From the IMG/VR virus record IMGVR_UViG_2524614843_000001, positions 39,279 through 103,278 of that record: a stretch of DNA of 64,000 nt, one strand, 5' to 3'. The position numbers and the translations under genes are program-made. This document shows positions 5,142-52,521 of the stretch, in pieces; position 1 is the stretch's first letter; each line of letters starts with the position of its first letter. This DNA comes from a virus (lineage: Duplodnaviria > Heunggongvirae > Uroviricota > Caudoviricetes). The notes below the pieces were generated by a model. It was not told where the DNA came from, made no database searches, and saw nothing but the letters and a program-made list of their open reading frames with translations.

Positions 5142-5453
5142 CTTCTCCGCGGTAGGCTTTGCAACGAAATTAAGCGCCCCTCGCCGGCTCGCAGCCAAGA
5201 TGCGGAAGGCTTCAAGCGTTGGCTTCCAGAGGTGTCGCTCCTTACCCTCTTCGACGATCACTTCACAGGCGGCAAGACCGTACTGCTGCAGATATGTCAG
5301 AGTGCAGCGCAGCGCACGCGGTGTCGGCGCGTAGCTGAGCATCAAGCGCAGCTCATTCGTCCGGATGGCCTTGCACGCCTCATTCTCATGACAGAGCCTT
5401 GCCAACACCTCCATCTGCTTTACGGTACCGGCGAACTGTTTGACCTTCTTCAT
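5139..5453 (-). CDS. Hypothetical protein (104 aa), last gene of ParB/ABC/GNAT operon
   Basis: GGAGGGA RBS; start overlaps stop of upstream GNAT-like gene. Confidence 0.5.
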   Translation of the reverse strand: MKKVKQFAGTVKQMEVLARLCHENEACKAIRTNELRLMLSYAPTPRALRCTLTYLQQYGLAACEVIVEEGKERHLWKPTLEAFRILAASRRGALNFVAKPTAEK

Positions 5454-6343
5454 GCCAGTCCCTCCAGATTGAGCGGCTCATGCACGCCCTGCCGGTCGAA
5501 TGCGGTCAGCGGAAGCCGGTCGGGCAGTACAAGCCCCACATCGGGGTTGAAGTAGAAGCCCCAGGCTGGCGCCCCGAAAATCAACTGCTGCATTTCCTTG
5601 AGCAAGTGAGCGGCCTCCATCGCCTCAACGCGCGAAGTACCGTTCTTCAAGTTTCCGCCCGTCTTTTCTTTGGCGCTCTCCTTGTAGTACCACTGCTTCA
5701 TGCGGCGCAGCACGCTCTGACGCATCACTTCCGGCATGGCATTGAGCTCGTTCATGATCGCTTCGTGGTCAACAGGGTCGGACTCGAACAGCCCGCGCAG
5801 GAACTTGAGCCCGATCTCGTACTTGGTGCTGGGCTCCGGCTTGGCGAAGCGAAAGCCTGCCCGCTCGGCGAACGGGTTGACCTTGCTCATCGAGCTGCTG
5901 ATCTCGTACAGGCGCAGGCCTTCCAGACGCATCGACAGGTTCAGCATCCGGTACGCCAGCCCGACGCCGCGGAACTGCGTGTCGTTGACCACGCGGGCGG
6001 CAAGCGCGAACTCCCGATTGATGACCTTGCCGCGCATGGTGTTGAGCAACGTGCTGTCTGCGCCTGGCTTGATGCCTGGCAGAACGCGGTGGCGGTTCTT
6101 GTCGAGCAGACGCGGGCGAGTGAACACCACAACACCGATGGTTTTGCCGGCCAGCACGCAGCGCCAGTAGTGGGCGCCGAACATGCTGTTGCTTTCGGTC
6201 TTGTAGTGCAGGGCGTGTAGCTGATGCCAGTCATCAATCGTTCCACGCTCCACGTACATATCGCGCAGCAATGAGAACGTGCGGGAAGCGGGCTGCAAGC
6301 GCATCAGACGCGCGTTTGCAGTGTCGGATAGGATAAGACTCAT
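5450..6343 (-). CDS. GNAT-fold acetyltransferase-like protein with about 120-aa C-terminal extension
   Basis: 297 aa; GNAT motif A-like RVVNDTQFRGVGLAYRML; translationally coupled to the upstream ABC ATPase gene. Confidence 0.5.
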   Translation of the reverse strand: MSLILSDTANARLMRLQPASRTFSLLRDMYVERGTIDDWHQLHALHYKTESNSMFGAHYWRCVLAGKTIGVVVFTRPRLLDKNRHRVLPGIKPGADSTLLNTMRGKVINREFALAARVVNDTQFRGVGLAYRMLNLSMRLEGLRLYEISSSMSKVNPFAERAGFRFAKPEPSTKYEIGLKFLRGLFESDPVDHEAIMNELNAMPEVMRQSVLRRMKQWYYKESAKEKTGGNLKNGTSRVEAMEAAHLLKEMQQLIFGAPAWGFYFNPDVGLVLPDRLPLTAFDRQGVHEPLNLEGLA

Positions 6344-6346
6344 CCT

Positions 6347-7054
6347 TCACTCTCCCGCGCGTTCTGAGCGCGTTTCTGCGTCATTCCGGACGATCTCGAC
6401 TTTCTCCCCGTAATACTTCTCCAGAATCAGGGACGGGTTGAGATCTTCGACCAGATCGCCGTGCGTGGTGGCGACGATCAGAGTCTTGCCGGCGCGGCGT
6501 GCAGCCTGCTGCAGTTGGTACGAGATTGCCTTTGCGGTGTTCCGGTCGAGCACGGCGCCGAACTCGTCGGCAACCCATACATCGGCATCGCTGCTCAGCA
6601 TATAGGCAAGCAATAGACGGTATTTCTGGCCATCCGACAGTTCGCCCGGGCGCCGGATGACGAGGTTTGCGTCATTGATACCGCCAAGAGACAGCAGCCG
6701 GATGGCTTCTTGCATGTCACCATTGGGCGCCAGCTGGTCCACCAGCGGCAGATTCGGGTCGAAAAGCTGACTCAAAACGCCATCTGAGGCCAACCCAATC
6801 GAGCCGACTTTCAAGCCGGCCGTTGCCAGCTGGCGAGCAGTTTCTCGCAGCGCGATGGATTTGCCGGAGCCGGATTCGCCTGTGATGTAGAAAACGTCGC
6901 CCTGCTCGATCTCGAACTGCAGGTTGTCGTAGATGGTGAACTGCTTGTCGTCCAAACCAACGCCAAACATTTCTGCGACCTGGCGCACGCGCTCAGTGCG
7001 CATAACTGACATGGCAAAGGCGACGTTCAGAGTGATGGTGTGTTTCCAGCTCAT
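6347..7054 (-). CDS. Stand-alone ABC-type ATPase (235 aa)
   Basis: Walker A GESGSGKS, ABC signature LSDGQKYRL, Walker B VWVADEF, H-loop TTHGD; ATGA overlap with upstream ParB-like gene. Confidence 0.7.
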   Translation of the reverse strand: MSWKHTITLNVAFAMSVMRTERVRQVAEMFGVGLDDKQFTIYDNLQFEIEQGDVFYITGESGSGKSIALRETARQLATAGLKVGSIGLASDGVLSQLFDPNLPLVDQLAPNGDMQEAIRLLSLGGINDANLVIRRPGELSDGQKYRLLLAYMLSSDADVWVADEFGAVLDRNTAKAISYQLQQAARRAGKTLIVATTHGDLVEDLNPSLILEKYYGEKVEIVRNDAETRSERAGE

Positions 7055-7737
7055 GCCGCGGCTCCTTCAAGATAGCGGCCGGCGAAGTCCATGAATGCGT
7101 CCTTGCCTTCCTTGCCGGTAGCGCCCTCAATCATGGCCATGAAGCGAGTCAGCCGACGTTGCTCTTCCACGGTGACGTGCTTGAAGCCCAGCACCTTGTC
7201 GATATTCACCTTCTCGGCATCGACGGTCTCGATTTTTTCCGCCGTCGAGGTGGCAATCGAGGTGCTTGCAGCAAGTAAGTTATCCACCGTTTCATTGAGG
7301 TCGATTTCATCGATCTTGAAGTCGCGCAGCAGCTTATCGAGCTCGCCGGTGTCGATTGCGGTCAGCTCGGCCAGCTCGGAAACATCGAAAGACAGATCAC
7401 GCAGCTCGGCGGTCAGGAAGTCGAAGTTGGTTTCGCCCAGCTCGCCCATGCGGTTGTCGTTGATGCGGAACAGGCGCTTGTCCTCTTCCGACATGCCGGT
7501 GACAACCAGTACCGGTACCGATTTGAGCTCTAGTTCCAGCGCAGCCAGTCGGCGACCATGACCGGCCATGATGACGAAGTTTTCATCGACGATGATGGGC
7601 GGTCCGGCCCAGCCTCGCTTCATGTTGGCCGCGAGCGCCTTGATCTGGCTCGGTGGGTGATTCTTGGGGTTCCGATCATAGGGAACCAGCTTCTCGATTG
7701 GGAAGTTGTTATGAAGTTCGCGCTTGATGTGTTCCAT
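7051..7737 (-). CDS. ParB N-terminal (ParB/Srx nuclease-like) domain protein 2
   Basis: 228 aa; ParB-box-like GHGRRLAALE; acidic C-terminal half. Confidence 0.6.
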   Translation of the reverse strand: MEHIKRELHNNFPIEKLVPYDRNPKNHPPSQIKALAANMKRGWAGPPIIVDENFVIMAGHGRRLAALELELKSVPVLVVTGMSEEDKRLFRINDNRMGELGETNFDFLTAELRDLSFDVSELAELTAIDTGELDKLLRDFKIDEIDLNETVDNLLAASTSIATSTAEKIETVDAEKVNIDKVLGFKHVTVEEQRRLTRFMAMIEGATGKEGKDAFMDFAGRYLEGAAA

Positions 7738-7740
7738 TAT

Positions 7741-7759
7741 GTCACCTGTGACTTACTTA
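7741..7759 (-). promoter_or_regulatory. Class-A motif copy (GTCAcctgTGACTTACTTA); includes stop codon of ParB-1 and ends 3 nt before ParB-2 ATG
   Basis: Minus reads gcTAAGTAAGTCAcagGTGACataATG. Confidence 0.55.
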
Positions 7760-8427
7760 GCGGTGAAGAGAATGTGAGCGAGAGCGTAGCCGGCATTAGT
7801 CAGCGCATCCTCTTCGGTAAAGCCTTGTTGCTCGCGGACGTTTTCAATCAGCTCGCGGATACGGATGGCGTCTGCCACCGGCACTTTGAAGCGGAGGATT
7901 TCGTGGGTTTTGACCTTTTCGCTCAGCGGCTCAACCACCGGTGCTTCTGGCGTCAGCTCTTCTGGCGCTGAAAAATCAGGAATTTCCAAGGCATCCAGAT
8001 CAATGCTGGTCGCTGCAAACAGATCATTGAGTTCGCGGTCACTAATCGGCATGAAGCTGGTGAGCTCTGGAAGATCAATATTCAGACTGGCAATGACCGC
8101 ATTCAGCGCGTCAATATCGTCGGCGCCGTAGCGCGCGTTATCCAGCAGGCCAATTTCTTTGGCCTCTTCATCGCTAATTGGGCCCAAGTTGAAAATCGGC
8201 ACTTCTGCCAGGCCAATTCGGATGGCTGATTCACATCGATGTTGGCCACCCAAAATTTCCAGAGTTAAACCTTCATTTGAGGGTATTTCGCGCACGATAA
8301 TTGGCTTAAACATGCCTCGGCGCTGAATACTCGCATCCAGTTTTGCCTCGTTATCCGGTGAAACTCGATTCGAGTTCCAAGGGTTAGGTTTTAGAGATCG
8401 CGGGTCAGCTTTTGATTGTCCAGTCAT
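7753..8427 (-). CDS. ParB N-terminal (ParB/Srx nuclease-like) domain protein 1
   Basis: 224 aa; GGQHR motif (EILGGQHRCESA) typical of ParB/DUF262-type domains. Confidence 0.6.
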   Translation of the reverse strand: MTGQSKADPRSLKPNPWNSNRVSPDNEAKLDASIQRRGMFKPIIVREIPSNEGLTLEILGGQHRCESAIRIGLAEVPIFNLGPISDEEAKEIGLLDNARYGADDIDALNAVIASLNIDLPELTSFMPISDRELNDLFAATSIDLDALEIPDFSAPEELTPEAPVVEPLSEKVKTHEILRFKVPVADAIRIRELIENVREQQGFTEEDALTNAGYALAHILFTAK

Positions 8428-10340: not shown

Positions 10341-10725
10341 ACTGATCTAGCTTTTTCTCAAGCATCTGAGACCAACGCTCCCGATAATTGTTAGGCCGAT
10401 CATGAACCTTATGAGCTTTCACGTCCGCGGTCGTCTCGTTTTCCGAACCTCGCAGCTCGATAATGCCAATAACCCAATGGCTAGGCCCGCCACCAAAAGC
10501 GGGAGCGTAAATATCGCATGTGGCCTTCTGACCACGCTGAAAACATTGGGCAACGCCAGCTTCACACTTGCGTCCGTTTTGGTAGAAGTTTTCGAGAACC
10601 TCATCGATTGGCGCTTTAATCGTGACGGTTTTGATGTTGAAGTCGCTGTCTTTGAAATCGGCCGGCTTTGAAGCGCAGCCGGCGATCAGAATAGCAGTTA
10701 GGGCAATGGGCAATGCTCTCAGCAT
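10333..10725 (-). CDS. Lipoprotein (signal peptide, lipobox LIAGC)
   Basis: Start taken at internal ATG 10725 (MLRALPIALTAILIAGCAS) with GAGGT RBS; the listed ORF start at 10836 is probably too long. Confidence 0.55.
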   Translation of the reverse strand: MLRALPIALTAILIAGCASKPADFKDSDFNIKTVTIKAPIDEVLENFYQNGRKCEAGVAQCFQRGQKATCDIYAPAFGGGPSHWVIGIIELRGSENETTADVKAHKVHDRPNNYRERWSQMLEKKLDQCS

Positions 10726-10774
10726 CGAATCTAACCTCAGAAGGGATGATGATGCCGGAATGATAACGCCCCGG

Positions 10775-11419
10775 TTAATCCCCGTCTCGCTCAAGTGCCT
10801 CGCGCCAGGTCTTTTTTGCGAGCTCCGGATTGTCATGCGCTAGCTGCAGCATATCCGCCGATGCCTCGGGGCCGAATTTCGCCTTGAGCCCCGCTGACCA
10901 GTCGTGCTGCAGCGCCTCGCGCATCGTCGCGCGCCCGAGCTCCGCCAGATCTTCCGAAACGCCACTGGCCAGCGCAACGATTTGCCACCACTCCCACACG
11001 TACTTCTTCTGGTTATGAGCCGGAATAGCGACGCCAGCCTCTTGCGCCTTTTGCACCGCGGCCTCCATCACGGACACGGCCACCCCGAAGATCTCACTGG
11101 TCTGCGGCTCAGAAGGAGCGCCGAGCAAGCGCACTTTCAGATCTTGGGTCCACTCGACCACGCCTTCGAGCAGACGAACGACCAAGCCGGCATCGATTGG
11201 ATTGATACCCCAGCACTTGCCAATCTTGTCGTCGTAGAGCTCGAACGCCCAGCGCAGCTCGTTGTGGCGCATGAGGTATTCAGTTTCCTCGCGCGCTTCG
11301 GCTTTTTGCTCTTTGGATGCCTGGCCAATCGACACGATACGCACTGTCGGCATCACGCCGTAAATCCCCATTGTGACGATGACTGATTCGGGCAAGGTTG
11401 GTTTAACGTCGGTTGTCAT
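10775..11419 (-). CDS. Hypothetical protein (about 214 aa)
   Basis: Start placed at MTTDVKPT (11419); coding-like codon usage. Confidence 0.45.
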   Translation of the reverse strand: MTTDVKPTLPESVIVTMGIYGVMPTVRIVSIGQASKEQKAEAREETEYLMRHNELRWAFELYDDKIGKCWGINPIDAGLVVRLLEGVVEWTQDLKVRLLGAPSEPQTSEIFGVAVSVMEAAVQKAQEAGVAIPAHNQKKYVWEWWQIVALASGVSEDLAELGRATMREALQHDWSAGLKAKFGPEASADMLQLAHDNPELAKKTWREALERDGD

Positions 11420-11661: not shown

Positions 11662-12144
11662 TCAGCCTTTCAAATTTTCAATTTCGTGTGGGTCGAGGTA
11701 TTCAACATCGTCCCAAGTTTCAAAGTTTGAGCGGTATGCTCTGCAGCACGCTGTTTCGATGCCATTTATTAACTCTGCAATGGCAATTTCTGCCATTCCT
11801 GTCCCTCGATCATTAAGAGAGTGTTGATACTTCAACACCGTAGCTACTATCGAGTTGGGTAACACCTCTCTTGCATATGGCAAGTCGAGTGTGGTGTTGA
11901 TAAACAGGTATTTAGAAAGCGGAATCCCACAGACTTTATCTTGCCAACTGAGCAATCGAATCATGTGTTTTATACAAGCCTTGACCCCTTCGTTGTATTC
12001 ATGGCCCGCGCCACACCTTACGCTGCCTACGGCAACTAAAGCGATTTGCGAAGCGAATCGCTTGCCTGCTGGCATCTGTTTATTGGCATGTCCGAAACTG
12101 ATTAAGTCAATGAGTTTTTCTTGTTCCACGGCTTCTTTACTCAT
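11662..12144 (-). CDS. Hypothetical protein
   Basis: About 160 aa; ORF with phage-like codon usage; no recognisable motif. Confidence 0.45.
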   Translation of the reverse strand: MSKEAVEQEKLIDLISFGHANKQMPAGKRFASQIALVAVGSVRCGAGHEYNEGVKACIKHMIRLLSWQDKVCGIPLSKYLFINTTLDLPYAREVLPNSIVATVLKYQHSLNDRGTGMAEIAIAELINGIETACCRAYRSNFETWDDVEYLDPHEIENLKG

Positions 12145-12250
12145 GATAATTTTTAGCTGCAATTATTGGACAATTTTCAAAATTAGACCGTCAATTAAAC
12201 CAAGACTGTTGATAAAAAACATATCGCCAGTCTTGATCTAGGATGCGAAT

Positions 12251-12781
12251 TTAAAAGGCCGTTGTTGTTCGATTGCATCTTTCAACAGCCACCTCATATG
12301 CTGATCGACCAGCGTTAGGTTCTGTTTTTAGCACTGGATATGAACCATTCTCTTTGAAATACTCAATGCCGCGACTCACGCAATCTCCGACGCTAGGCTC
12401 TGATCTTTGCTCTTGCTGATGCTCTCGCTTGTAGTTCTCGCTCTTCACGCTTGCTATGCCGTCGGCCGTGATTTTTTTGTCCTCATCTTTGCAGGCATAA
12501 ATTTGGTACTGCTCTTCTTGCCATTCTTTGATCGGTCTATCGCCGATTACTTTTGACAGGTACTCAGAAAGATCTTTGCTGATGCCTGGCTCTCCGGCCA
12601 ACATTGCACGCTGGCAATCATTGAGATCAAACACATCGATCTGCTCAAGTTTCACCCCGGTGTAATACTTGGCATTCGGGCTAACCGGCTTTGGCGGCTC
12701 TTTCGTTGTCTCGCCGCATCCAGTCATCAGAGTCAAAAGAGTGGCTGCGCAAGCAGCCACGATGTTGGCTTTATGTTTCAT
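12251..12781 (-). CDS. Lipoprotein (signal peptide, lipobox LMTGC)
   Basis: 176 aa; MKHKANIVAACAATLLTLMTGCGE. Confidence 0.6.
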   Translation of the reverse strand: MKHKANIVAACAATLLTLMTGCGETTKEPPKPVSPNAKYYTGVKLEQIDVFDLNDCQRAMLAGEPGISKDLSEYLSKVIGDRPIKEWQEEQYQIYACKDEDKKITADGIASVKSENYKREHQQEQRSEPSVGDCVSRGIEYFKENGSYPVLKTEPNAGRSAYEVAVERCNRTTTAF

Positions 12782-13225
12782 GGTTTCCTTCCTGTCTTAT
12801 CGCTGGTTTTTTATGACGAGCACTGTAACACCGGAGAGGCGCGCGAGGCCATCTTGCGAGGATTTTGTCTACGCATGAACGAAACATTTGCTCGAGGGGA
12901 GGGCGACCTCATGGCGTCGTCCGTGGGTATAGGGGAGGGAAGAGTGCTCGGGGCGTGGGGTTGTGCCGGCAATGGATTCCAGCACTCCGCGTTTTTCTAG
13001 GGCTTCGATTCTGATTTGCTCGCTTTCTCGCTTTTGCTCTCTCGCTTGCTCGCTTGCTTGAATATCGCGCTATTTGACGCACAATCGCGCGCTATTGCGT
13101 TTTCTCTGTCGTGCTAGTATCTGACGCTATTCAATCCGCAAAACGCGCTAGAATCGCTTAAAAACGCTATTGCCTCGCTTGCTTGTTTCGCTTGCTGCTA
13201 CGCTAGCGCACAAAAAGAAAAAGCG

Positions 13226-13256
13226 CGGAATTATCCGCGCTTTCTATTTAATTACT
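13226..13256 (-). terminator. Rho-independent terminator after foreign gene (GCGCGG-ataatt-CCGCGC + TTTTTCTTTTT on minus)
   Basis: Seen on minus strand just 3' of stop at 13260. Confidence 0.6.
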
Positions 13257-13259
13257 TAA

Positions 13260-13889
13260 TTATTCCGCTTTTGCTGCTAATTCAATTCCATACGCTGCGC
13301 ACAATTTTTGTGTTGCTTTGCTTTCTACATTTAGCGCAATTGTCCAGTTTTCCGCGTTTTCTTTTTCCTTGATTGTTGCGATTCCGCATTTAGTTAAAAC
13401 GCTGCGAATTCCATTAGCTTGTCTAAATGTAGCGTGCTGCAATTCGCGTTTGATTGTTACGCTTTGGATTGATTGCATTGATTTTGCTTTCATCCATTCA
13501 AAAACGATGCTTGTGTTAGCGTCAGTCAATGACTTTTTAGAATCGCTTACTGCGACAATTTGCGTATTGTCCAGCAATGCGCGGAAAATCCGTTCCGCTT
13601 TGTCAATTTCATAAACTCCGATTGTTGCGACTTGCTCTAAATCAATTCCAAGCGCAACAAGTTTGCGCAGCTCTTGCTCGCTGAATTTTGCGAGTAATTC
13701 GCAACGATGAGCGCGTGCAATCAGCTTTTGCTCAGCGCGTTTTAATGTGCTGTCTGCTTCTGCTTTGTTTTCTACGTCTTGATTTTCCAATTCCGCGCGC
13801 TGCGCTGCGATTGCTGCGCTTTGTACGCGATTAGTTTCAGCAGCAGACAGAATGTTATTCAGAAATTCTTTAGCGTTAAATTTAGACAT
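13260..13889 (-). CDS. Hypothetical protein encoded in a compositionally foreign (low-GC, A-ending codons) segment
   Basis: 209 aa; codon usage (gca/gaa/caa/aaa/tta) unlike the rest of the window; has own terminator; class-A motif copy immediately upstream. Confidence 0.6.
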   Translation of the reverse strand: MSKFNAKEFLNNILSAAETNRVQSAAIAAQRAELENQDVENKAEADSTLKRAEQKLIARAHRCELLAKFSEQELRKLVALGIDLEQVATIGVYEIDKAERIFRALLDNTQIVAVSDSKKSLTDANTSIVFEWMKAKSMQSIQSVTIKRELQHATFRQANGIRSVLTKCGIATIKEKENAENWTIALNVESKATQKLCAAYGIELAAKAE

Positions 13890-19548: not shown

Positions 19549-20190
19549 ATGCGTGGTTTATTGGCAACCCTGGTATTTACGCTCCTGACCGGCTGCGGCA
19601 CTTTTGTCCGCACTAATGTATCGGTGTTTCACGAGCTGGACTCATCGCTATCTGGTGTCACTTACACGATTGTCCCTTCCAATGAGCAAAAAGAAAGCCT
19701 CGAGTTCCGGTCATACGCCAAGCTGATTAAAAACCAGCTGCAAACACGCGGCATGTCGGAGGTTCCATACAAAGAGGCCAAATACGCCATCTTGATGCAG
19801 TATGGAATCGATAATGGCCAAGAGGTTGTATCGACCTATCCTATTTTTGGCCAGACAGGGGTTAGCAGCACCTACACAACCGGTTCCGTGAACGTGTACG
19901 GCAATACTGCCACCTATAACGAGAGCACCTATGTCACTCCGACCTTCGGAGTTGTTGGTACCGGAACCTCATCAGACACGGTGTTTACCCGCTACTTGAA
20001 CCTAGACATTGTGGACATTGCGAATTCTGGCGATGGAAAGGTGAGAAAGGTCTACGAAGGCAAGGCGATCAGTAAAGGCTCTAGCAGCCAGCTCGCTCCA
20101 GTGATGCCATATATGGTGAAGAGCGTCTTTGAGGACTTCCCTGGCACTAGCGGTTCAACCAAGACGATTGAGTTGCCATTGCAAAAATAA
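19549..20190 (+). CDS. Lipoprotein (plus-strand moron; signal peptide, lipobox LLTGC)
   Basis: 213 aa; GGGAGA RBS; AT-rich promoter-like upstream region and own terminator. Confidence 0.65.
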   Translation: MRGLLATLVFTLLTGCGTFVRTNVSVFHELDSSLSGVTYTIVPSNEQKESLEFRSYAKLIKNQLQTRGMSEVPYKEAKYAILMQYGIDNGQEVVSTYPIFGQTGVSSTYTTGSVNVYGNTATYNESTYVTPTFGVVGTGTSSDTVFTRYLNLDIVDIANSGDGKVRKVYEGKAISKGSSSQLAPVMPYMVKSVFEDFPGTSGSTKTIELPLQK

Positions 20191-37878: not shown

Positions 37879-38889
37879 TTAATCATCATCGCCCCAATCC
37901 AGCGCACCGCTCTTATACGAAACCACTTTGGTCTCGAAGAAGTTACGCAGGTTGCCGTTGATGGAGCTGTAATCCAAGAACCAAGGAATCGGATTGCTCA
38001 CCATATAGATTGGCTCCATACCAAGCATTACCGCACGGTCATCAACCAGCCACTTCACAAAGTCGGTAATGATGGCCGGCGTCAGGCCCATTACACCCTT
38101 CTCGACGATGTGGCAGCCCCAGGTGATTTCCAGATTGCCGGCGTTGATCAGAAGTTGGCGAGCGTCGCGCCAGAAGTCGGCATCAAAGATCTCGGGGTTC
38201 TCTTCGCGCAGTGTCCGGAACATCGACAGGAAGAGCGCCAAATGCGACTCCTCGTCCCTCTGTATGAGCTTAATTCCTTCGGCAGTACCAGGCATCTTGG
38301 AATTGCGCGCCAGCGCGTAGAAGGTGGCAAAGGCCGAGTAGAAGTAGATGCCCTCCAGCGCGATATTCGAGACCACTGCGAGCGCGAAATTGCGCGGGCT
38401 ATAGTCGTTACCCAAGATCGCGGACTGCGCCAGAATGTGCTCGTTCTTGGCTGCGAGAATGTCGTCGCGCATGAACAGGGTGTAAATGCTGCTCGGGTCG
38501 TCGGTGATCGCTTCGATGATGGTTGAGTAGGCCTTCACATGCAGCGCTTCTTCCCAAGTCTGCCGGCTGATGGCCATGCGGACTTCCGGACTGGTGATGT
38601 AGGGCGCAATGTTGTCCGCTAGGTTGTGGAACTGGATACCGTCGAGATTGGATACGAAGGCTAGTGCGCTGTCGAAAGCGTGACGCTCACCGGTGGTCAG
38701 ATCACCACCCTTGTACTGCATAACGTCGCGGCCAAGTGCCATCTCCTTGACCGTCCAGTTATTGCTTTCCATTGTTTCGATTAACTCCCAAGCCCATTTG
38801 TGCTTGAGTGGTGATACGCACATCAGACGATCGTGGGAGCCGCCGATGAGCCGGCGATTGTTGACTGATTCGATGATGGCTTGTTGCAT
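37879..38889 (-). CDS. nrdB: Ribonucleotide reductase class I small (beta) subunit
   Basis: 336 aa; di-iron ligand motifs incl. DEESHLALF. Confidence 0.85.
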   Translation of the reverse strand: MQQAIIESVNNRRLIGGSHDRLMCVSPLKHKWAWELIETMESNNWTVKEMALGRDVMQYKGGDLTTGERHAFDSALAFVSNLDGIQFHNLADNIAPYITSPEVRMAISRQTWEEALHVKAYSTIIEAITDDPSSIYTLFMRDDILAAKNEHILAQSAILGNDYSPRNFALAVVSNIALEGIYFYSAFATFYALARNSKMPGTAEGIKLIQRDEESHLALFLSMFRTLREENPEIFDADFWRDARQLLINAGNLEITWGCHIVEKGVMGLTPAIITDFVKWLVDDRAVMLGMEPIYMVSNPIPWFLDYSSINGNLRNFFETKVVSYKSGALDWGDDD

Positions 38890-38910
38890 GTTGTGTTTTC
38901 CTCTACGTTA

Positions 38911-38930
38911 GTCATCGATGACTGACTAAT
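38911..38930 (-). promoter_or_regulatory. Class-A motif copy (GTCAtcgaTGACTgACTAAT)
   Basis: Palindromic core AGTCATCGATGACT identical to copy at 8455. Confidence 0.5.
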
Positions 38931-39046
38931 GATAACGGAAACTTAATGGCGCGTCTGTCGTCTGTAGAGTGTCACCGGTAGTATTTTATTGCTGGTATGA
39001 TGCAAAATGCCGACAATAGACTGGCATTTTGCAAATGGAGGTTCTG

Positions 39047-39835
39047 ATGAATGTGAAATCGCTATTTTGGTCTCGTAGAAGGGTCAAAGAGCGCAATGCC
39101 AGGGCGCTTTCTCTACAGCCAAGCAGGAATCAGTCCGACACTTTGGTTGTGAATGTGATTGCCGATCTGTCACAGGCTGATCTTTGCGGTCAAAATATTG
39201 CTCAGCAGGATTCGACAAGTAAAGCGCCAAAAAGATTGCACATGTCTAGGGTTATTGGAAAAAGAGGCGATGGTCGTCAGCGCAGCTCAGTTGTAAATAA
39301 ATTGAGCTATGCCTCTCCCTTTGATGCTACAAGCTTTTCGGTAGAGCTGGATTCAAACGGCGAGCTGAAAATATACCATCCAAAGAAAGCGCATCCGGTA
39401 CGTCCTTCAAACGATGAACTCTTGTACTACAAGGGGCGCCCAATCTCATTAGACCATGCAGGCGACATCAAGCAGAGCATCGCTTTTGCCAAGATGATTG
39501 AAGAAGGGCTCGACACGAAAACCATAAGGGCTCTTTTGGATGTAGGATTTACGCAGACTGAGCTCGATGTGGTCATACCTGCACGCACTCTGAAACGCAG
39601 GCTTGTATCTGATCAACAGCTGACCCGTGAAGAGTCGGCAAAATTGGTGCGATACGTTCGCACCTTCTCATCGGCTCTTGAGATCTTTGGCGATAAGGAA
39701 AAAGCGCTGGCATGGTTAAGAGCCCCCAAGAAGAAGCTGGATGGCAAAACGCCGCTCGATCTTCTGTCAAACGAAATAGCGGCTCAAGTAGTTGAGGATT
39801 ACCTTGGACAAATTCAGTCAGGGTACTTCGCATGA
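39047..39835 (+). CDS. Xre/MbcA/ParS-type antitoxin (C-terminal HTH + DUF2384 domain) with unusual about 110-aa N-terminal extension
   Basis: C-terminal ...GKTPLDLLSNEIAAQVVEDYLGQIQSGYFA typical of RES-partner antitoxins; GGAGG RBS; lower GC than surroundings; start uncertain. Confidence 0.55.
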   Translation: MNVKSLFWSRRRVKERNARALSLQPSRNQSDTLVVNVIADLSQADLCGQNIAQQDSTSKAPKRLHMSRVIGKRGDGRQRSSVVNKLSYASPFDATSFSVELDSNGELKIYHPKKAHPVRPSNDELLYYKGRPISLDHAGDIKQSIAFAKMIEEGLDTKTIRALLDVGFTQTELDVVIPARTLKRRLVSDQQLTREESAKLVRYVRTFSSALEIFGDKEKALAWLRAPKKKLDGKTPLDLLSNEIAAQVVEDYLGQIQSGYFA

Positions 39836-40266
39836 AGCTATATCGCATCAGTAATTATGCCGATTTGCAAGGGGAGGGAGGCCGGCGTTTTTCTGCTCGG
39901 TGGCATCACAAAGGCGAGCCGATTGTTTATCTTGGTGAGTCTGTGACTGGCTGTATGCTTGAGGTGATGGTTCACATAGAGGCGGATGTACCGGATACCT
40001 TCAAGCTAAGTACCGTAGAAACGAACGATGCGTCCGTACAAGCGCTCGACGTTTCCTCACTGCCAACAAACTGGCGGGACGATCAGGGTGTAACCAAGCA
40101 GATTGGAACGGAGTGGCTGGCCGATCAGTCCTCGGCCTTGCTGAGAGTGCCTAGCGCTATCGCGCCTGAAACATGGAACTACCTACTCAATCCAAAGCAT
40201 CCGGATGCGGCCAAGTGTGAGATTGTGGACGTGGATGATTACCCTTGGGACAAGCGCCTATTTTAA
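39832..40266 (+). CDS. RES-domain toxin (NAD+-targeting, MbcT/ParT-like)
   Basis: 144 aa; R..E..S motifs GGRRFSARW...YLGES...EVMVH; overlaps antitoxin stop. Confidence 0.7.
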   Translation: MKLYRISNYADLQGEGGRRFSARWHHKGEPIVYLGESVTGCMLEVMVHIEADVPDTFKLSTVETNDASVQALDVSSLPTNWRDDQGVTKQIGTEWLADQSSALLRVPSAIAPETWNYLLNPKHPDAAKCEIVDVDDYPWDKRLF

Positions 40267-40296
40267 ACCCGGCTTTCGCCGGGTTTATTTTTACTA
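40267..40296 (+). terminator. Rho-independent terminator (AAACCCGGC-tttc-GCCGGGTTT + ATTTTT)
   Basis: Hairpin plus T-run after RES gene. Confidence 0.7.
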
Positions 40297-40518
40297 CTGA
40301 CTAAAGACGACCTCCGCCACCGCCTCTCGGTGCTCGCCATTAAGCCTGTACGCTACTGCACCTTTAGCCCTTCCCGCGATGTAGTAGCCTATCGCTGGAT
40401 TGTCCGACTTGCCTTCTGGAAAGACAATGAGCGGTTTGATGTGTGTGGCGCCCGATGGCAAGCCTGTGACCTTAAATGGCGTATCTGATGTTGCGTTGAT
40501 GATAATTTGAACTGGCAT
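40294..40518 (-). CDS. Hypothetical small protein (74 aa)
   Basis: Start at MPVQIIINAT with AGGAGG RBS. Confidence 0.4.
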   Translation of the reverse strand: MPVQIIINATSDTPFKVTGLPSGATHIKPLIVFPEGKSDNPAIGYYIAGRAKGAVAYRLNGEHREAVAEVVFSQ

Positions 40519-40650
40519 ATTGGAATCCTCCTGTATTGTGCCTTGTGGATAGAGCAGAGAAGCAAACCGATGCTTCAAGCTCGTCATAGTTATTTATTGC
40601 CGCAGAAAAAAAACAGCCCAAAATGGGCTGTTTTTCTGCTCTGCAAGGCC

Positions 40651-42975
40651 TTACTGGCAGGATTCGCAGTCTGGATTATCCACTGCGCACATTTTGCCAA
40701 GCTCGGGCGCTGGCGATTCGGCCTTTGCCTTCACTTCGCTAGATGGAGTGCGCAAGTAGTAGGTGGTCTTGCAGCCCAACTCCCAAGCCAGTTCGTACCA
40801 GCCGGACAGTGTTGGGCCATCGATGCCGCCGTCCTTGTCAACGAAAATGTTGAGGGACTGCGACTGGTCAATCCACTTGCCGCGGACTGCAGCCGCCTTG
40901 ATCAGCCAGGTCTGCGCAATTTCAAACGCAGTCTTGATGATCTTGCGGCCGTAGCGCAGAGTCGGGTCAATCACGCGATAGTCGCCGCCCAAGTTGGATG
41001 CGGTGTATTCGCGCTGATAAACCGGCTCGATGCAAGGCGTGGTACCGACGATATTGCTGATCGTTGCCGTTGGCGCAATGGCCATGCAGTTAGAGTTGCG
41101 CATACCGAAGGTCATCACCAGTTCACGAACACCTTCCCAATCGCACGTAGACCACTCGCCATCATGCAGTGCGGCTACTGCATCCTTATTGATCACAGTG
41201 TCGATCGGTAGAATGCCCTTCGACCACTTCGAGCCGGCAAAGCTAGGATACGCACCGCGCTCCTGCGCCAGCTCGCATGAGGCGATGATTGCGCAATAGC
41301 TGACCCATTCCATCATGCGGTCAGCGGCCTCTAAATGCTCGCGGCTATCCCATTCGTAGCCGGCAGCGGCCAGCCACTCGGTATAGCCCATGATGCCTAA
41401 ACCAACAGGGCGATGACGCAGATTGGATGCGCGCGCTCGCTCAGATGGGTAGAAGTTAATGTCGATCACGTTGTCGAGCATACGCATTGCCGTTGATACC
41501 GTGCGCTTGAGCTTGGCTGAGTCCAGCGTGATGTACTTCTCGCCGTTCTCTTCCACTTCGATCAAGTGGCGCGACAGGTTTACCGAGCCCAGGTTGCAGA
41601 CTGCCGTTTCGTCATCGCTGGTGTTCAGCGTGATCTCGGTGCAGAGGTTGGAGTTATGCACCACGCCAACGTGATCTTGCGGGCTGCGCAGATTGCAAGC
41701 GTCTTTGAAGTTCACCCAAGGATGACCGGTCTCGAACAGCATGGTCAGCATTTTGCGCCACAGCTTGCGTGCCGGCATTTGGCTGTGAATCTTCTCAGGC
41801 TCATTTTCGACGATTTCGTTGTAGCGCTTGCTGAACGCCTCGCCATACAGATCGTGCAGCTCTGGTGCCACGCTCGGGTCGATGAAGAACCACTCAGCCT
41901 TCGCCTTGACGCGCTTCATGAACTCGTCCGGAATCCAGCTGGCAGGGAAAATGTCGTGCGCGCGGCGGCGCTCGTCACCAGTGTTTTTCTTGAGCTCGCA
42001 GAAGGCAGGGAAGTCCGGATGCCAGGGCTCCATGTATGCAGCGAATGCGCCATTGCGCTTGCCGCCCTGATTAACCGCTACCGCAGTATCGTTGAACACT
42101 TTGAGATAAGGAATGGTGCCGGCCGATTTGCCTTGTGTACCCTTGATCAACGCACCTTCACCACGAACGCGAGTCCAGTCAGTACCGATACCACCGGCCC
42201 ACTTCGACAGCATGGCGCACTCTTCAATCGTGCCGTAAATAGAGGCATGGCGCGCATTGATCGGGTCGTCCGAAGTCAGCGTATCGGCTACCGTGTTCAG
42301 ATAACAGCTCGACAATTGGCTGCGCGGCGTGCCGGCGTTGAACAGGGTAGGGGTGCTGCTCATGAAGTCGAAGGTCGAGAGCACATTGTAAAATTCGATG
42401 GCGCGCAGAGTCGGGTGCGGCTCATTGATTGCCAGGCCCATCGCAACACGCATAAAGAAATGCTGCGGCATTTCGATGATCTTGCCCTTGCGCTCTTTAC
42501 CTACGGGGTCAAGACGAATCAGGTAGCGATCAGCAACCGCACTGATGCCTTGATAATCGAACAACAAGTCACGGCTTGGGTCGATGGCATCATTGAGCTG
42601 CTTGAAATTGAATAGGCCAGAATCCAACACTGGATTGAGTCGGCCAATCTTTACGCCTTTGGCGATATAGCTTTCCAATGAAGGGTATTCAACATCACCA
42701 CCGGTCACTTCCTTGATGATGCGCTGATACATCAGACGCGCAGCAAAGAAACGGTAGTCCTGTTTATCCAACGCAATAAAGCCAGCGGCCGTCCGAATCG
42801 CCGCCTCTTGGATTTCGTGTGTGCTAATGCCCTCATACAGTTGCGGAATTACTGCATCAAGAACCAGCTTAGCGTCAACATCAAGCCCCTTTCCGGCAAT
42901 AACAAGGGCATTAAGTAGTTTGTCGCTATTAAATTGAACTTGAGAACCGGAGCGTTTTTGTACGTTTTTCAGCAT
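40651..42975 (-). CDS. nrdA: Ribonucleotide reductase class I large (alpha) subunit with N-terminal ATP-cone
   Basis: 774 aa; ATP-cone, catalytic Cys motifs, C-terminal CxxC-like tail (CAVDNPDCESCQ). Confidence 0.9.
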   Translation of the reverse strand: MLKNVQKRSGSQVQFNSDKLLNALVIAGKGLDVDAKLVLDAVIPQLYEGISTHEIQEAAIRTAAGFIALDKQDYRFFAARLMYQRIIKEVTGGDVEYPSLESYIAKGVKIGRLNPVLDSGLFNFKQLNDAIDPSRDLLFDYQGISAVADRYLIRLDPVGKERKGKIIEMPQHFFMRVAMGLAINEPHPTLRAIEFYNVLSTFDFMSSTPTLFNAGTPRSQLSSCYLNTVADTLTSDDPINARHASIYGTIEECAMLSKWAGGIGTDWTRVRGEGALIKGTQGKSAGTIPYLKVFNDTAVAVNQGGKRNGAFAAYMEPWHPDFPAFCELKKNTGDERRRAHDIFPASWIPDEFMKRVKAKAEWFFIDPSVAPELHDLYGEAFSKRYNEIVENEPEKIHSQMPARKLWRKMLTMLFETGHPWVNFKDACNLRSPQDHVGVVHNSNLCTEITLNTSDDETAVCNLGSVNLSRHLIEVEENGEKYITLDSAKLKRTVSTAMRMLDNVIDINFYPSERARASNLRHRPVGLGIMGYTEWLAAAGYEWDSREHLEAADRMMEWVSYCAIIASCELAQERGAYPSFAGSKWSKGILPIDTVINKDAVAALHDGEWSTCDWEGVRELVMTFGMRNSNCMAIAPTATISNIVGTTPCIEPVYQREYTASNLGGDYRVIDPTLRYGRKIIKTAFEIAQTWLIKAAAVRGKWIDQSQSLNIFVDKDGGIDGPTLSGWYELAWELGCKTTYYLRTPSSEVKAKAESPAPELGKMCAVDNPDCESCQ

Positions 42976-43013: not shown

Positions 43014-43598
43014 CTACTTTTTATTAAAAAAAGAGGTAGCCATCGCCGTTGCGCTCTTGAACTGTTCGGTTATAACACCTGCGTTAATAACCCCCACCGA
43101 ATCGGCCAAATGCTCGTTTTTGCCGAGCAATTCGATCTGCCCCTTGTACTTCCGCGTGAGCCAGGGAAGCGAAGGGTACCGATCAACGGCCCAATCGATG
43201 ATCTCCTTTTTCGTTGCGTTTCGTTTTCCAACCGTGACCATTTTGACCTCTTCCTCTTTCACTTCGATTAGAGGCAAATCTAGTCCGGCCAGAATGCCGA
43301 CCACAATCCCGAATGACTTGGCAGCAGACGCGCTTTGCCCTCCGGTTGGCACTTCTGCGATCAGCATTGACGCTTGGGTGTGTTGAATGTACTGACGCAC
43401 ACCCTGCACAATCTCCCGAGCGCACCGCAAATCATCGCTATTACGGCGCACCTTTTTGCTGTTATCACGCTCGGTTTCAATCAAGCGTAGATCATGTAAT
43501 GTAAGTTGCCCGTTACTTAGGTCGTAACTGGCATGACTCAATCCTACATTGCGAAAAGCTGCATCGATTCCAACGATGCTTAACTGGTGATGAAACAT
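43014..43598 (-). CDS. RuvC-like Holliday-junction resolvase
   Basis: IVGIDAAFRNVGL (RuvC motif I), IAEVP, ADSVGVINAG; start placed at MFHHQ. Confidence 0.6.
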   Translation of the reverse strand: MFHHQLSIVGIDAAFRNVGLSHASYDLSNGQLTLHDLRLIETERDNSKKVRRNSDDLRCAREIVQGVRQYIQHTQASMLIAEVPTGGQSASAAKSFGIVVGILAGLDLPLIEVKEEEVKMVTVGKRNATKKEIIDWAVDRYPSLPWLTRKYKGQIELLGKNEHLADSVGVINAGVITEQFKSATAMATSFFNKK

Positions 43599-43653
43599 GG
43601 CGATATTATTCTGTAACAATCAAATGTAAGCAAACCTGCCTGGCAAATATTAT

Positions 43654-43672
43654 GTCATTGATGACTTACTTA
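43654..43672 (-). promoter_or_regulatory. Class-A motif copy (GTCAttgaTGACTTACTTA)
   Basis: In 370-bp AT-rich gap upstream of resolvase gene. Confidence 0.55.
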
Positions 43673-43986
43673 TGCAGGCAAAGATTTGAAGTCAATAGTA
43701 AAAGTAAACAACAAAGAGCAGGCGGGCCGGTCAGGTGACGCTTCACTTCATTCATTTTTAACCTCCAGTTTAACTGCCAGCTGATGTTCTCTAAGCTGGC
43801 TTTTGATTGAAAATAAAAGAGATTTCTCTTTCATTTCATATTGTTATGTCATTGTTACGGGTCAGCAACAATCACTATTTGAGGCCAGCAGGGGATGTAA
43901 TATGGTTGCCAAAGTCATAAATTCAATCCCTAAGAAAGTGGCCTCAAGTTAAATCAAACGTATGACCAAAAGCCGACGAACGGTAG

Positions 43987-44640
43987 CTACCAAGAGCCGT
44001 ATCCTGCCTCAAAACGTTGCTCTTTGAGCACTGCCTTTTGGCGAAAACTTTCAAGTAACTTCTGGCATTCTTGATCAATTGCGTCAGCAACAATCCAATA
44101 CTCACCCTGATCGAGCCGAACAAGGCTAAGCTCGGAAGTCACGGCATAAGTCTTGTCGGCGTCGAGCTCCGGAATCACAAAGTTGAAGGTATTTGTGCAA
44201 GAGCCAAATTGGCCAATTTTCGTATCCGCATTGATCAAGCGAGCAGTGGAGCCACTCGTGACCAAGTAGCTGTTGACCTTATCAATCACTCTGTTGATCA
44301 AATTGCTAGGGTCATATTCTTTTTCGATCAATGCGCCTCTGAACTTGTCCATGATTTTCTCAGCCACACTCTCCGGCGTAATTGGCTCTGATATAAGCAT
44401 CGAATCCGCATAGCTTAGGGACAGTCTTAGGCACAATTGATGACCCTCTATGTCCGCCACAATCCTAAAAACAGATGACTCATTAGGCACATCGTCGTAA
44501 CAGTCGAGCTTGAACTCTTCCGGCTTCAAGCCATAGGTTGTCATCCGGAGAATCAAGCTGTCGTTTACCAGCTTGGTAAATTCCGATGAGCCAATTTTTG
44601 GCGCCTCTTTAGGTCTTTTCATAAACTTAAACATCACCAA
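43987..44640 (-). CDS. Hypothetical protein ending in ...AGYGSW
   Basis: 217 aa. Confidence 0.5.
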   Translation of the reverse strand: MVMFKFMKRPKEAPKIGSSEFTKLVNDSLILRMTTYGLKPEEFKLDCYDDVPNESSVFRIVADIEGHQLCLRLSLSYADSMLISEPITPESVAEKIMDKFRGALIEKEYDPSNLINRVIDKVNSYLVTSGSTARLINADTKIGQFGSCTNTFNFVIPELDADKTYAVTSELSLVRLDQGEYWIVADAIDQECQKLLESFRQKAVLKEQRFEAGYGSW

Positions 44641-45146
44641 CTCCCATACCCTAGATCGTTACGCTCTGCTTGAAGCGCGGCTTTCGCTTCTTTTTCCTTC
44701 CTTAATGCTTCCAGCTGAGCGCGCGCAGCTTGAGGGGTAACGACGGAACTGATCACCCAAGCGATCAACTCTTCCAGCGTCCTAGCGCTTCCGAATTGAT
44801 CTTTGGGGCGACCGGTCACAATCCATCGTCCGAAGTTGACCACAATGCGGCCAAGCTCCAGCTCATCAGTGGCGGTATTGCGGACGAAATTACCCTTCTC
44901 GTCGCGCATAGCCACATGAAAATGCAGATCACGGCCTGAATTGACCGCCTCAACGCTGAGCACCTCCCACTCGCTGTCAGGCTTTGCAACCCTTGATTGG
45001 ATGCCGCCAACCGAATAGATCGTTTCGCCTGGTGCGATGGGACTTAGAACGAGCCGCTCGGCGCCGCTCGTTCTTTCGCTGATGATGCCGTTGAGTGCGA
45101 TTTCAACCTGACGATTCAGGCTGGCAACGTCAGCAAGTCCAGCCAT
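44634..45146 (-). CDS. Hypothetical protein ending in ...LGYGSW
   Basis: 170 aa; shares C-terminal GYGSW tail with the adjacent gene. Confidence 0.5.
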   Translation of the reverse strand: MAGLADVASLNRQVEIALNGIISERTSGAERLVLSPIAPGETIYSVGGIQSRVAKPDSEWEVLSVEAVNSGRDLHFHVAMRDEKGNFVRNTATDELELGRIVVNFGRWIVTGRPKDQFGSARTLEELIAWVISSVVTPQAARAQLEALRKEKEAKAALQAERNDLGYGSW

Positions 45147-51641: not shown

Positions 51642-51872
51642 ATGGCCATCACAACCCTGAAAAAAATACCTCGGCAGTTTATGTACGCCGGTGTGAATCG
51701 TTCTTGCGCTTCTGATAGAATGTTCCTCGTCTCCCGAGAGGACTTTGATCGTTTGATCGGGCCAAATCACGAGCGTCTCTCCCAAGATAGAGTTAGGGAG
51801 ATCGCTACATTCATGGTTCGTAAGATCAATAGTCGCGGCAAAATAAATGGAAGAATCAAAAAAGTCGGTTAG
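51642..51872 (+). CDS. DUF1778/TacA-like antitoxin (short; C-terminal toxin-binding region conserved)
   Basis: 76 aa; DRMFLVSREDFDRLIGPN resembles DUF1778 C-terminal segment; GAGGTGA RBS. Confidence 0.45.
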   Translation: MAITTLKKIPRQFMYAGVNRSCASDRMFLVSREDFDRLIGPNHERLSQDRVREIATFMVRKINSRGKINGRIKKVG

Positions 51873-52521
51873 TGAAGAACCAAACTTTGATGCCGACGAG
51901 ATCGGCCCATTGAAGCCTGAACATGATTGTTCGGGCTTCGTTGTTTCTGCGCCCGCAGACGCGAGCGGCGACGAGCAGATTCGCTTTGCCGATCTGCAAA
52001 ACTACCTAACCTCCGGTCAGGCACTCGCAGAGCACACTGCAGGCTATACCAAAGTCACCGTCGTCTACAACGGTAAAACGCAAGAAGTTCACGGCTACTA
52101 TACCTGCAACGTCACTACGCTCAACGTGATGGATAGCCGTAGCACCGTATGCCCCGGCGCAACCGATCACTTCGACGTTCAAGTGCCGACTTACGGAGTG
52201 CCGGCGCTCATGCTTAGCAGGCTTGCCGTTCGCTCGGATGTGCAAGGTTTCGGCTATGGTAGTGAGATGATGCAAGACCTCTTCCAGCATTTTGAAGAGG
52301 TCGCACAAGTGACGCCATTGACCGGCATTGCTCTGGACTATCTCGACGCCAAAGCCATGAGTTTTTATGGCAAATTCGGCTTCTCGGCATTCAACAACAA
52401 GAACACCAAGCACCGCATGTTCCTTTCGAGAGCAGACGTGATCGCGCTGAATGCCACCGTTGTCGATGAAATCGCCGATGCCGAAGAGGCGCTCGACGAA
52501 GCGACGGACAAGACTAGCTGA
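51847..52521 (+). CDS. GNAT-family toxin (TacT/KacT-like aminoacyl-tRNA acetyltransferase)
   Basis: 224 aa; PLKPEHD.SGF.....GYYTCNVTTL and ALMLSRLAVRSDVQGFGYGSEMM follow the TacT pattern. Confidence 0.6.
   Translation: MEESKKSVSEEPNFDADEIGPLKPEHDCSGFVVSAPADASGDEQIRFADLQNYLTSGQALAEHTAGYTKVTVVYNGKTQEVHGYYTCNVTTLNVMDSRSTVCPGATDHFDVQVPTYGVPALMLSRLAVRSDVQGFGYGSEMMQDLFQHFEEVAQVTPLTGIALDYLDAKAMSFYGKFGFSAFNNKNTKHRMFLSRADVIALNATVVDEIADAEEALDEATDKTS

Follow-up and report, generated by a model that had tools for sequence, protein, structure and literature searches.

A RES-Xre toxin-antitoxin cassette with a long-form antitoxin between nrdB and nrdA of a phage-plasmid-like element

Why a tailed-phage-like element should carry, among its nucleotide-metabolism genes and on the strand opposite to them, a two-gene cassette is the question raised by the locus described here. 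The locus lies in IMG/VR virus record IMGVR_UViG_2524614843_000001 (Caudoviricetes), in a 64,000-nucleotide stretch that we call the window and that covers positions 39,279-103,278 of a 103,278-bp contig; all coordinates below use window numbering. An earlier annotation made from the letters alone, referred to here as the sequence-only reading, had assigned the two genes to the RES-Xre toxin-antitoxin (TA) family and placed them on the opposite strand between nrdB and nrdA. The family assignment is borne out by matches in Pfam, NCBIfam and the PDB and the placement by the open reading frame (ORF) map, and the region is almost certainly both a RES-Xre type II TA cassette and an insertion. The cassette genes are as follows:

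39047-39835, plus strand: Xre antitoxin, 262 aa from an ATG with GGAGG 5 nt before it
39420-39835, plus strand: antitoxin core, with the helix-turn-helix (HTH) at ORF residues 153-211 and the C-terminal toxin-binding domain at 215-265
39832-40266, plus strand: RES toxin, 144 aa

The antitoxin gene comes first in this bicistronic arrangement, and the xre stop codon and the res start codon overlap as ATGA (39832-39835). The mechanical start of the xre ORF is a TTG at 39029, upstream of the ATG that we prefer. Profile matches identify both proteins: the toxin scores 101.1 bits (E 8.4e-29) against the Pfam RES family PF08808, for which the cut-off is 23.2, and 142 bits against the NCBIfam model Res_ParT_toxin NF049844 (cut-off 110), and the antitoxin matches Pfam Xre_MbcA_ParS_C PF09722 (E 9.8e-16) and Xre-like-HTH PF20432 (E 1.5e-8) together with NCBIfam TIGR02293 (85 bits, cut-off 57). 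Residues R23, W24, H25, Y33, E44 and S108 of the toxin are invariant across an alignment of 29 homologues; R23, Y33, E44 and S108 align with the toxin of Pseudomonas putida, the signature Arg, Glu and Ser of “RES” and the Tyr thus being kept. As the invariant residues are all present, the toxin looks catalytically intact; we predict that it degrades NAD+.

The best solved match to both proteins is the Xre-RES pair of P. putida, reportedly described by Skjerning et al. in 2019, which has the same antitoxin-first bicistronic layout. Against its toxin (PDB 6GW6, 9R35; Henriksen et al. 2025, PMC12204516) the window toxin aligns over its full length with an E-value of 1e-33, and the core of the window antitoxin matches the Xre chains of 6GW6/9R35 and of 8GUG with E-values of about 3e-15 to 4e-15. 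The crystallized toxin chain of 6GW6 has Ala at the position of the signature Arg, whereas 9R35 has Arg. The two pairs differ in setting and in size, the P. putida pair being chromosomal with a 149-aa Xre, whereas that of the window sits on a phage-like element and has a 262-aa Xre. Other members of the superfamily are matched by the toxin with E-values of 1e-18 (8GUG), 2e-17 (ParT) and 2.5e-4 over 45 residues (MbcT). Both MbcTA of Mycobacterium tuberculosis, an NAD+ phosphorylase, and ParST/PrsT of Sinorhizobium meliloti, which ADP-ribosylates Prs, share the RES/Xre superfamily and the C-terminal toxin-binding antitoxin domain with the window pair but are far more distant. Sequence does not decide whether the toxin acts by hydrolysis, phosphorolysis or protein ADP-ribosylation; its closest characterized relatives are of the NAD+-depleting type (PMC12204516).

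Only one close relative of the cassette was found, on an uncultured mobile element (L002; proteins P0122 and P0002). Its RES protein is 69% identical to that of the window, P0122 and the window Xre core share 60% identity across 154 aa, and its antitoxin is likewise long (276 aa), but the N-terminal ~124-135 residues cannot be aligned with those of the window Xre. The carrier of this sister cassette holds KfrA_N, integrase and AcrVA2-like genes and is not a phage-plasmid backbone. All contigs with the sister cassette (L002-L006) have, about 170 nt after RES on the same strand, a conserved 464-aa ORF (11433-12827 of L002) without a Pfam match, which could be a third component there and has no equivalent in the window. 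Beyond this sister, the next-best RES homologues reach at most 57% identity and come from unrelated taxa, and no closely related pair turned up in a host. The exact RES and Xre proteins occur in the Chitinibacter tainanensis contig, in Logan run SRR896346 and in one second run.

The wider distribution of the toxin is strongly skewed, with RES homologues in 1,558 of 72,556 plasmids (~2%) vs none of 50,697 phage records. In those phage records, tblastn of the RES toxin gave no match at E<=1e-3, tblastn of Xre found nothing, and megablast and blastn of the region returned no match, so that the element has no near-identical phage among them. Neither protein matched PHROGs or, in a defence-model search, PADLOC (E<=0.01). 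Scans of IMG/VR with the RES protein and with the 29-sequence RES alignment gave no confirmed relative and one weak match of 41 residues, which counts as weak negative evidence because the back-translated patterns are narrow. Phage-borne pairs of RES and HTH genes have been noted before, with superinfection exclusion or dormancy as suggested roles (Iyer et al. 2022, PMC9503650), and the category of phage-borne RES TA systems is therefore already described. The examples of Iyer et al. show no detectable similarity to the window toxin in tblastn of the phage records or in PHROGs; the window cassette is a separate acquisition, out of the plasmid/chromosome clade.

Upstream of xre, the DNA has the layout of an autoregulated promoter, and downstream of res the cassette ends in a terminator of its own:

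38957-39050, plus strand: putative promoter, operator and ribosome-binding-site region, conserved with the L002 cassette at 75% DNA identity
38989-38994, plus strand: putative -35 element TTGCTG, with a 17-nt spacer to the -10
39001-39011 and 39023-39033: perfect 11-bp inverted repeat TGCAAAATGCC / GGCATTTTGCA, bracketing the -10
39012-39017, plus strand: putative -10 element GACAAT, within the inverted repeat
39037-39041, plus strand: Shine-Dalgarno sequence GGAGG, 5 nt before the ATG at 39047
40264-40296, plus strand: intrinsic terminator, a hairpin at 40264-40287 with a 10-bp GC-rich stem followed by TTTTT

Exact copies of the half-site occur only twice in the window, both being the arms of the 39001-39033 palindrome. 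L002 shares the -35, the 17-nt spacing and a GAyAAT -10, the palindrome (10/11) and the GGAGG-ATG spacing. The P. putida Xre-RES pair has been shown experimentally to repress its own promoter through an inverted repeat (PMC12204516), and by analogy 38957-39050 probably functions as a promoter with a palindromic operator. With the operator ~110 nt ahead of the start of the divergently oriented nrdB, transcription of nrdB might come under the influence of the TA complex as well. The terminator hairpin, which takes in the stop codon of res, has a folding energy of -17.1 kcal/mol (z -5.4; 0/200 shuffles fold as well), in keeping with the strong terminator that had been proposed for the cassette. 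It is not common to L002, and an Rfam scan gave only sub-threshold matches, to this hairpin. Read on the minus strand, the hairpin runs into UUUAAAAUAGG, which makes a poor U-tract.

Whether the cassette is a newcomer at this position can be judged from relatives of the flanking genes, which in the window are separated by 1,761 bp:

37879-38889, minus strand: nrdB, with a thioredoxin gene beyond it
40651-42975, minus strand: nrdA, on the other side of the cassette

A search based on NrdA recovered ten IMG/VR loci at 52-55% identity, nine of which have both nrdA and nrdB and were compared. All nine have the order sbcD-sbcC-...-ruvC-nrdA-nrdB on one strand with an nrdA-nrdB gap of 81-395 bp, and the two genes are likewise co-directional and 80-400 bp apart in a Cupriavidus metallidurans plasmid and an Acinetobacter baumannii plasmid. 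No RES-Xre pair lies between nrdA and nrdB in any of these 11 relatives, and the insertion claimed by the sequence-only reading therefore stands, the cassette not being an ancestral feature found at the same locus in all relatives. In Pseudomonas phage nickie the gap holds four unrelated hypothetical genes. Homology to the sister cassette starts near 38957 and stops at the RES stop codon, limits which make promoter, xre and res together the likely mobile unit. The sequence-only reading had also pointed to lower GC and to a recent acquisition. The drop is present but modest (49.2% vs 53.8%, the 11th percentile of same-size windows), and GC content at third codon positions (GC3) is 0.48 in Xre and 0.56 in RES against 0.63 +/- 0.09 in the genes of the element; acquisition holds, but “recent” cannot be given a date when NrdA identity to the nearest relatives is just ~50-55%. 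Just outside the cassette ends are 12-nt direct repeats, ACTGACTAATGA (38921-38932) and ACTGACTAAAGA (40296-40307), which could be an insertion scar or recombination microhomology; two-copy repeats of this kind are common by chance.

The gap is more crowded than the sequence-only reading allowed, which recognized the cassette but overlooked two further features on the minus strand:

40604-40640, minus strand: nrdA terminator, directly after the nrdA stop (-29.6 kcal/mol, z -5.4, U8 tract)
40294-40518 (74 aa) or 40294-40587 (97 aa), minus strand: small ORFan preceded by a strong Shine-Dalgarno sequence (AGGAGG), between the RES terminator and nrdA

With so strong a terminator behind nrdA, nrdA and nrdB would here be separate transcription units, and nrdB must then have a promoter of its own in 38890-39000, shared divergently with the TA promoter; a sigma-70 scan found no promoter in 38890-39000. 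The ORFan at 40294-40587 has no homologue but itself among 5.8 billion proteins and no match in Pfam, NCBIfam, PHROG or PADLOC. Between nrdA and nrdB, related IMG/VR phages have a conserved ORF of 80-96 aa with the motif FYANQGFDHG, of which the window has no homologue, and the ORFan was rejected as its counterpart, the two being unrelated. In the Cupriavidus plasmid a hypothetical gene of 70 aa takes this place.

The feature that sets this cassette apart from its family is the N-terminal part of the antitoxin:

39047-39419, plus strand: N-terminal extension of Xre, ~124 codons (estimates ~100-124), basic, hydrophilic and without homologues

At 262 aa the antitoxin lies outside the size norm of ~110-160 aa and is a long-form variant, size not being a defining catalytic feature. 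The Xre proteins paired with the chromosomal RES homologues nearest to this one measure 118-145 aa and the Xre chains in the PDB 149-150 aa. In the alignment with the P. putida Xre (149 aa), residues 151-260 of the window protein pair with its residues 37-147, leaving ~114 extra N-terminal residues, and plasmid Xre homologues align mostly from about residue 103-145 on, with a few low-identity alignments from 48-76; these alignments agree with the extension of ~110 aa given by the sequence-only reading. The extension is strongly basic (pI 10.2 for residues 1-133) and has no homologue but itself among 1.84 billion representative proteins. A single-sequence AlphaFold2 model of Xre was uninformative, its mean predicted local distance difference test score being 38 and low even across the known fold.

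Because the ORF is continuous and the Shine-Dalgarno sequence and ATG are conserved in both long-form cassettes, we infer that the extension is translated from 39047. Its frame stays open for 128 codons, a length that is free of stops in just 0.04% of shuffles. Comparison with L002 shows how sharply the extension is delimited, with DNA identity of 75% over 38957-39050, 29-50% with gaps (background) over 39051-39419 and 69% over 39420-40259, and BLASTP gives no alignment between the N-termini of Xre and of the L002 long-form antitoxin. On this comparison the extension would be either exchangeable or very fast-evolving. The N-terminal ~100-124 residues probably tune the lability of the antitoxin or add a regulatory input. 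That two sister cassettes share regulatory DNA and core but have unrelated N-termini is what one would expect if the N-terminus were an exchangeable module for regulation or sensing. In its most specific form, the idea would make the long-form Xre a “sensor” antitoxin of modular build: its exchangeable module of ~124 residues would tie the release of RES, and with it NAD+ collapse, to one particular trigger, for instance the lysis-lysogeny switch of the element, a protease adaptor or some protein from an invading phage; we regard this as speculative and quite improbable.

What the cassette does for its carrier depends on what the carrier is. The element forms a contig of its own (103,278 bp) in the assembly of a Chitinibacter tainanensis isolate, which is consistent with extrachromosomal maintenance, and it was also recovered in Logan run SRR896346. 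Window proteins include a portal, large terminase, DNA polymerase, SbcCD, RuvC, RecA, NrdAB, ThyX, MazG and CobS/CobT-like proteins, and upstream of the window the same contig encodes capsid-like, tail terminator and tape-measure proteins. The portal matches 965 plasmid records in PLSDB and NrdA 966, at ~50-56% identity; in phage records the portal has 36 matches only. The matched plasmids have listed lengths of ~93-118 kb, most are non-mobilizable, and their hosts include Klebsiella, Escherichia, Acinetobacter, Yersinia, Salmonella, Aeromonas and Cupriavidus. Collinearity extends over 27 window ORFs with the circular 107,329-bp plasmid of C. metallidurans ZM02 (NZ_CP083720.1), in which a TrfA replication initiator and a MipZ/ParA-like ATPase adjoin the CobT-like gene. 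ParB-like and ATPase genes are also present in the window:

7051-7737 and 7753-8427, minus strand: two ParB-like genes, near the terminase
5450-6343 and 6347-7054, minus strand: two ABC-type ATPase genes, adjoining the terminase

This ParB/ABC-ATPase block (5450-8427) is kept in the Cupriavidus plasmid, which has an annotated type I toxin gene between the ParB genes. The AB group, the SSU5 supercommunity, RHEph10 and Nickie have been grouped as related phage-plasmids and relatives, and TA systems are listed among the variable or shell genes of phage-plasmids (Pfeifer et al. 2021, PMC7969092). From the plasmid matches, the Cupriavidus collinearity, the ParB-like genes and the lineages of Pfeifer et al., the carrier is most likely an extrachromosomal prophage, and we consider a phage-plasmid related to AB/SSU5 probable, with reasonable though far from full confidence. 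A plain virulent T5/Nickievirus-like phage, suggested by synteny with nickie, was the default and is now the less likely reading, given ~965 plasmid matches and a collinear, TrfA-bearing circular plasmid. At their first base the 80,754-bp Logan contig and the 103,278-bp NCBI contig seem to coincide, the window offset of 39,278 and the 64,000 nt of the window adding up to 103,278; this hints at a defined physical end or a repeat there.

A TA cassette has been found next to the same genes in a related element. The A. baumannii phage-plasmid NZ_CP027608.1 (locus L026, which the coordinates follow) has a Doc-family toxin with a small upstream gene (10490-11271) on the opposite strand between nrdB and thyX, directly beside nrdB and thus in the same syntenic neighborhood as RES-Xre in the window, and a HicA toxin gene (905-1117) near a cell-wall hydrolase. 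The toxin families differ, Doc being of the kinase/Fic type whereas RES acts on NAD+. Given the Doc pair and HicA on this plasmid, the nucleotide-metabolism region of the backbone seems to collect TA cassettes repeatedly. A spread sample of 60 records of RES-bearing plasmids, which is not a systematic survey, held no other RES-Xre on this phage-plasmid backbone, and a Burkholderia RES-bearing plasmid of 106.6 kb was rejected as a phage-plasmid, being an ordinary plasmid.

Among the roles that the sequence-only reading had listed for the pair, an addiction module is the one we favor, the carrier resembling phage-plasmids more than a plain lytic phage. With somewhat more belief than doubt, we take the cassette to be a canonical, horizontally acquired RES-Xre operon carried as accessory cargo and acting in plasmid-type addiction on a siphovirus-type, phage-plasmid-like element of ~103 kb. 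Judging from what is established for the family (PMC12204516), a sigma-70-type host promoter would transcribe xre and res as one translationally coupled mRNA, the Xre-RES complex would bind the 11-bp palindrome at the -10 and repress its own promoter, and the C-terminal domain of Xre would occlude the RES active site. If the element were lost or transcription of the cassette stopped, the antitoxin would decay and the freed RES would consume NAD+, leaving the cell arrested or killed. The likely pay-off would be stabilization of an extrachromosomal prophage by post-segregational killing. Indirect support comes from the plasmid-biased distribution of RES, from the Doc pair beside nrdB and from the persistence of the element in an isolate assembly. 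Accessory TA modules on extrachromosomal prophages, such as Phd-Doc of P1 and the TA genes of SSU5/AB, offer the closest functional comparison (PMC7969092).

Several observations weigh against this interpretation. Xre scores 88.7 with the Xre_ParS_antitoxin model NF049845, marginally below the cut-off of 90, and the sigma-70 scan called no promoter at the proposed cassette promoter. No Rep/TrfA or ParA was found within the 64-kb window; the CobT-like gene is followed by ~285 nt before the contig ends, at exactly the point where the regulator, ParA-like and TrfA module of the Cupriavidus relative is situated. Nickievirus relatives are predicted to be virulent (PMC11256456), and for this reason we infer rather than demonstrate plasmid-like carriage. 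The Legionella RES-Xre homologue GndRX has been reported to be non-canonical (PMC12457610), so that homology to RES-Xre is no guarantee of canonical activity.

Defence offers a different account of the same genes. In cells with the element, infection by another phage would trigger loss of Xre, through shut-off of host transcription or in another way, whereupon RES would deplete NAD+ and abort the competitor; TA systems and NAD+ depletion are established themes of abortive infection, the exclusion role suggested for phage RES and HTH pairs points the same way (PMC9503650), and the non-homologous N-terminal region of Xre could serve as a trigger-sensing surface. However, the proteins lack matches to PADLOC models, evidence for anti-phage defence by RES-Xre was not found, and the cassette sits among nucleotide-metabolism genes and outside any recognized defence island. 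We consider a role in superinfection exclusion unlikely, noting that it is compatible with addiction and that both can coexist. The cassette may also bring the element no benefit, either as a selfish or neutral hitchhiker kept because its loss is lethal, or as a domesticated or inactive pair that is non-toxic and in which Xre acts as a regulator. The non-canonical behavior of GndRX despite its homology suits the inactive variant, whereas the invariant RES residues are all kept, and L002 shares the operator, ribosome-binding site and translational coupling, all of them intact here. In favor of the selfish variant, chromosomal TA systems of P. putida, RES-Xre included, have been described as “rather selfish than beneficial” (PMC7280312). 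Similar opposite-strand cassettes stand between bacterial housekeeping genes, for example ileS-lspA and ribF, and the present one is carried by this element and one other sample only. Even so, an addiction phenotype would in practice stabilize the carrier too, and we hold a purely selfish or inactive cassette to be rather unlikely.

A part in the lytic cycle or in anti-defence is the reading we find hardest to credit, and we consider it very improbable. Xre would act as a decoy against a host RES abortive-infection toxin, or RES would deplete host NAD+ during takeover. Phage antitoxins that counter host TA systems are known, T4 Dmd among them (discussed in PMC9503650). A pure decoy would have no need of the toxin, which is kept intact here, and no close host RES-Xre that it could counter turned up, the homologues nearest after the sister cassette being those of unrelated taxa at <=57% identity. 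Transcription of the cassette and minus-strand transcription from the ORF at 40294-40518 converge, and lytic transcription could interfere with the cassette since its hairpin is a poor terminator on that strand. Against a takeover function, ribonucleotide reductase and thioredoxin, encoded by the neighboring genes, form a pathway that requires NAD(P)H, as is established biochemistry. This RES clade is, moreover, represented in 0/50,697 phage records and was not found in the IMG/VR pattern scans.

If the addiction interpretation is true, an NAD+-depleting RES-Xre pair joins the accessory repertoire of phage-plasmids. The nrdA-nrdB-thyX block of a widespread backbone would then be a place where opposite-strand TA cassettes have landed repeatedly (RES-Xre here, Doc in Acinetobacter), which bears on the persistence of such elements in their hosts. 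TA cassettes on phage-plasmids are in themselves textbook knowledge, as with Phd-Doc of P1. Apart from its long-form antitoxin the present one is an ordinary TA cassette, of a family that is well characterized, found on ~2% of sequenced plasmids and already noted on phages. The long-form antitoxin, known from two cassettes, is the sole feature able to raise a new question.

Elsewhere in the window, a second pair of genes stands on the opposite strand, a 76-aa ORF (51642-51872, plus strand) overlapping the start of a GNAT acetyltransferase gene (51847-52521, plus strand). The latter matches Pfam Acetyltransf_7/1 and the PHROG acetyltransferase family; as these are generic GNAT matches and a TA assignment has neither Pfam nor NCBIfam support, the pair at 51642-52521 was rejected as a GNAT-type TA system. 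A plus-strand DUF4136 gene (19549-20190, E 1.4e-14) among function-unknown minus-strand genes is a possible moron. Two patches of low GC were also observed, one at 11662-13889 with genes of GC3 0.37-0.50 and one at ~43450-44650 with 38-46% GC around 43.5-44.6 kb. At the latter, the ORFs 43987-44640 and 44634-45146, which have no family match, both end in ...GYGSW. The composition of the two patches suggests other foreign or fast-evolving cargo.

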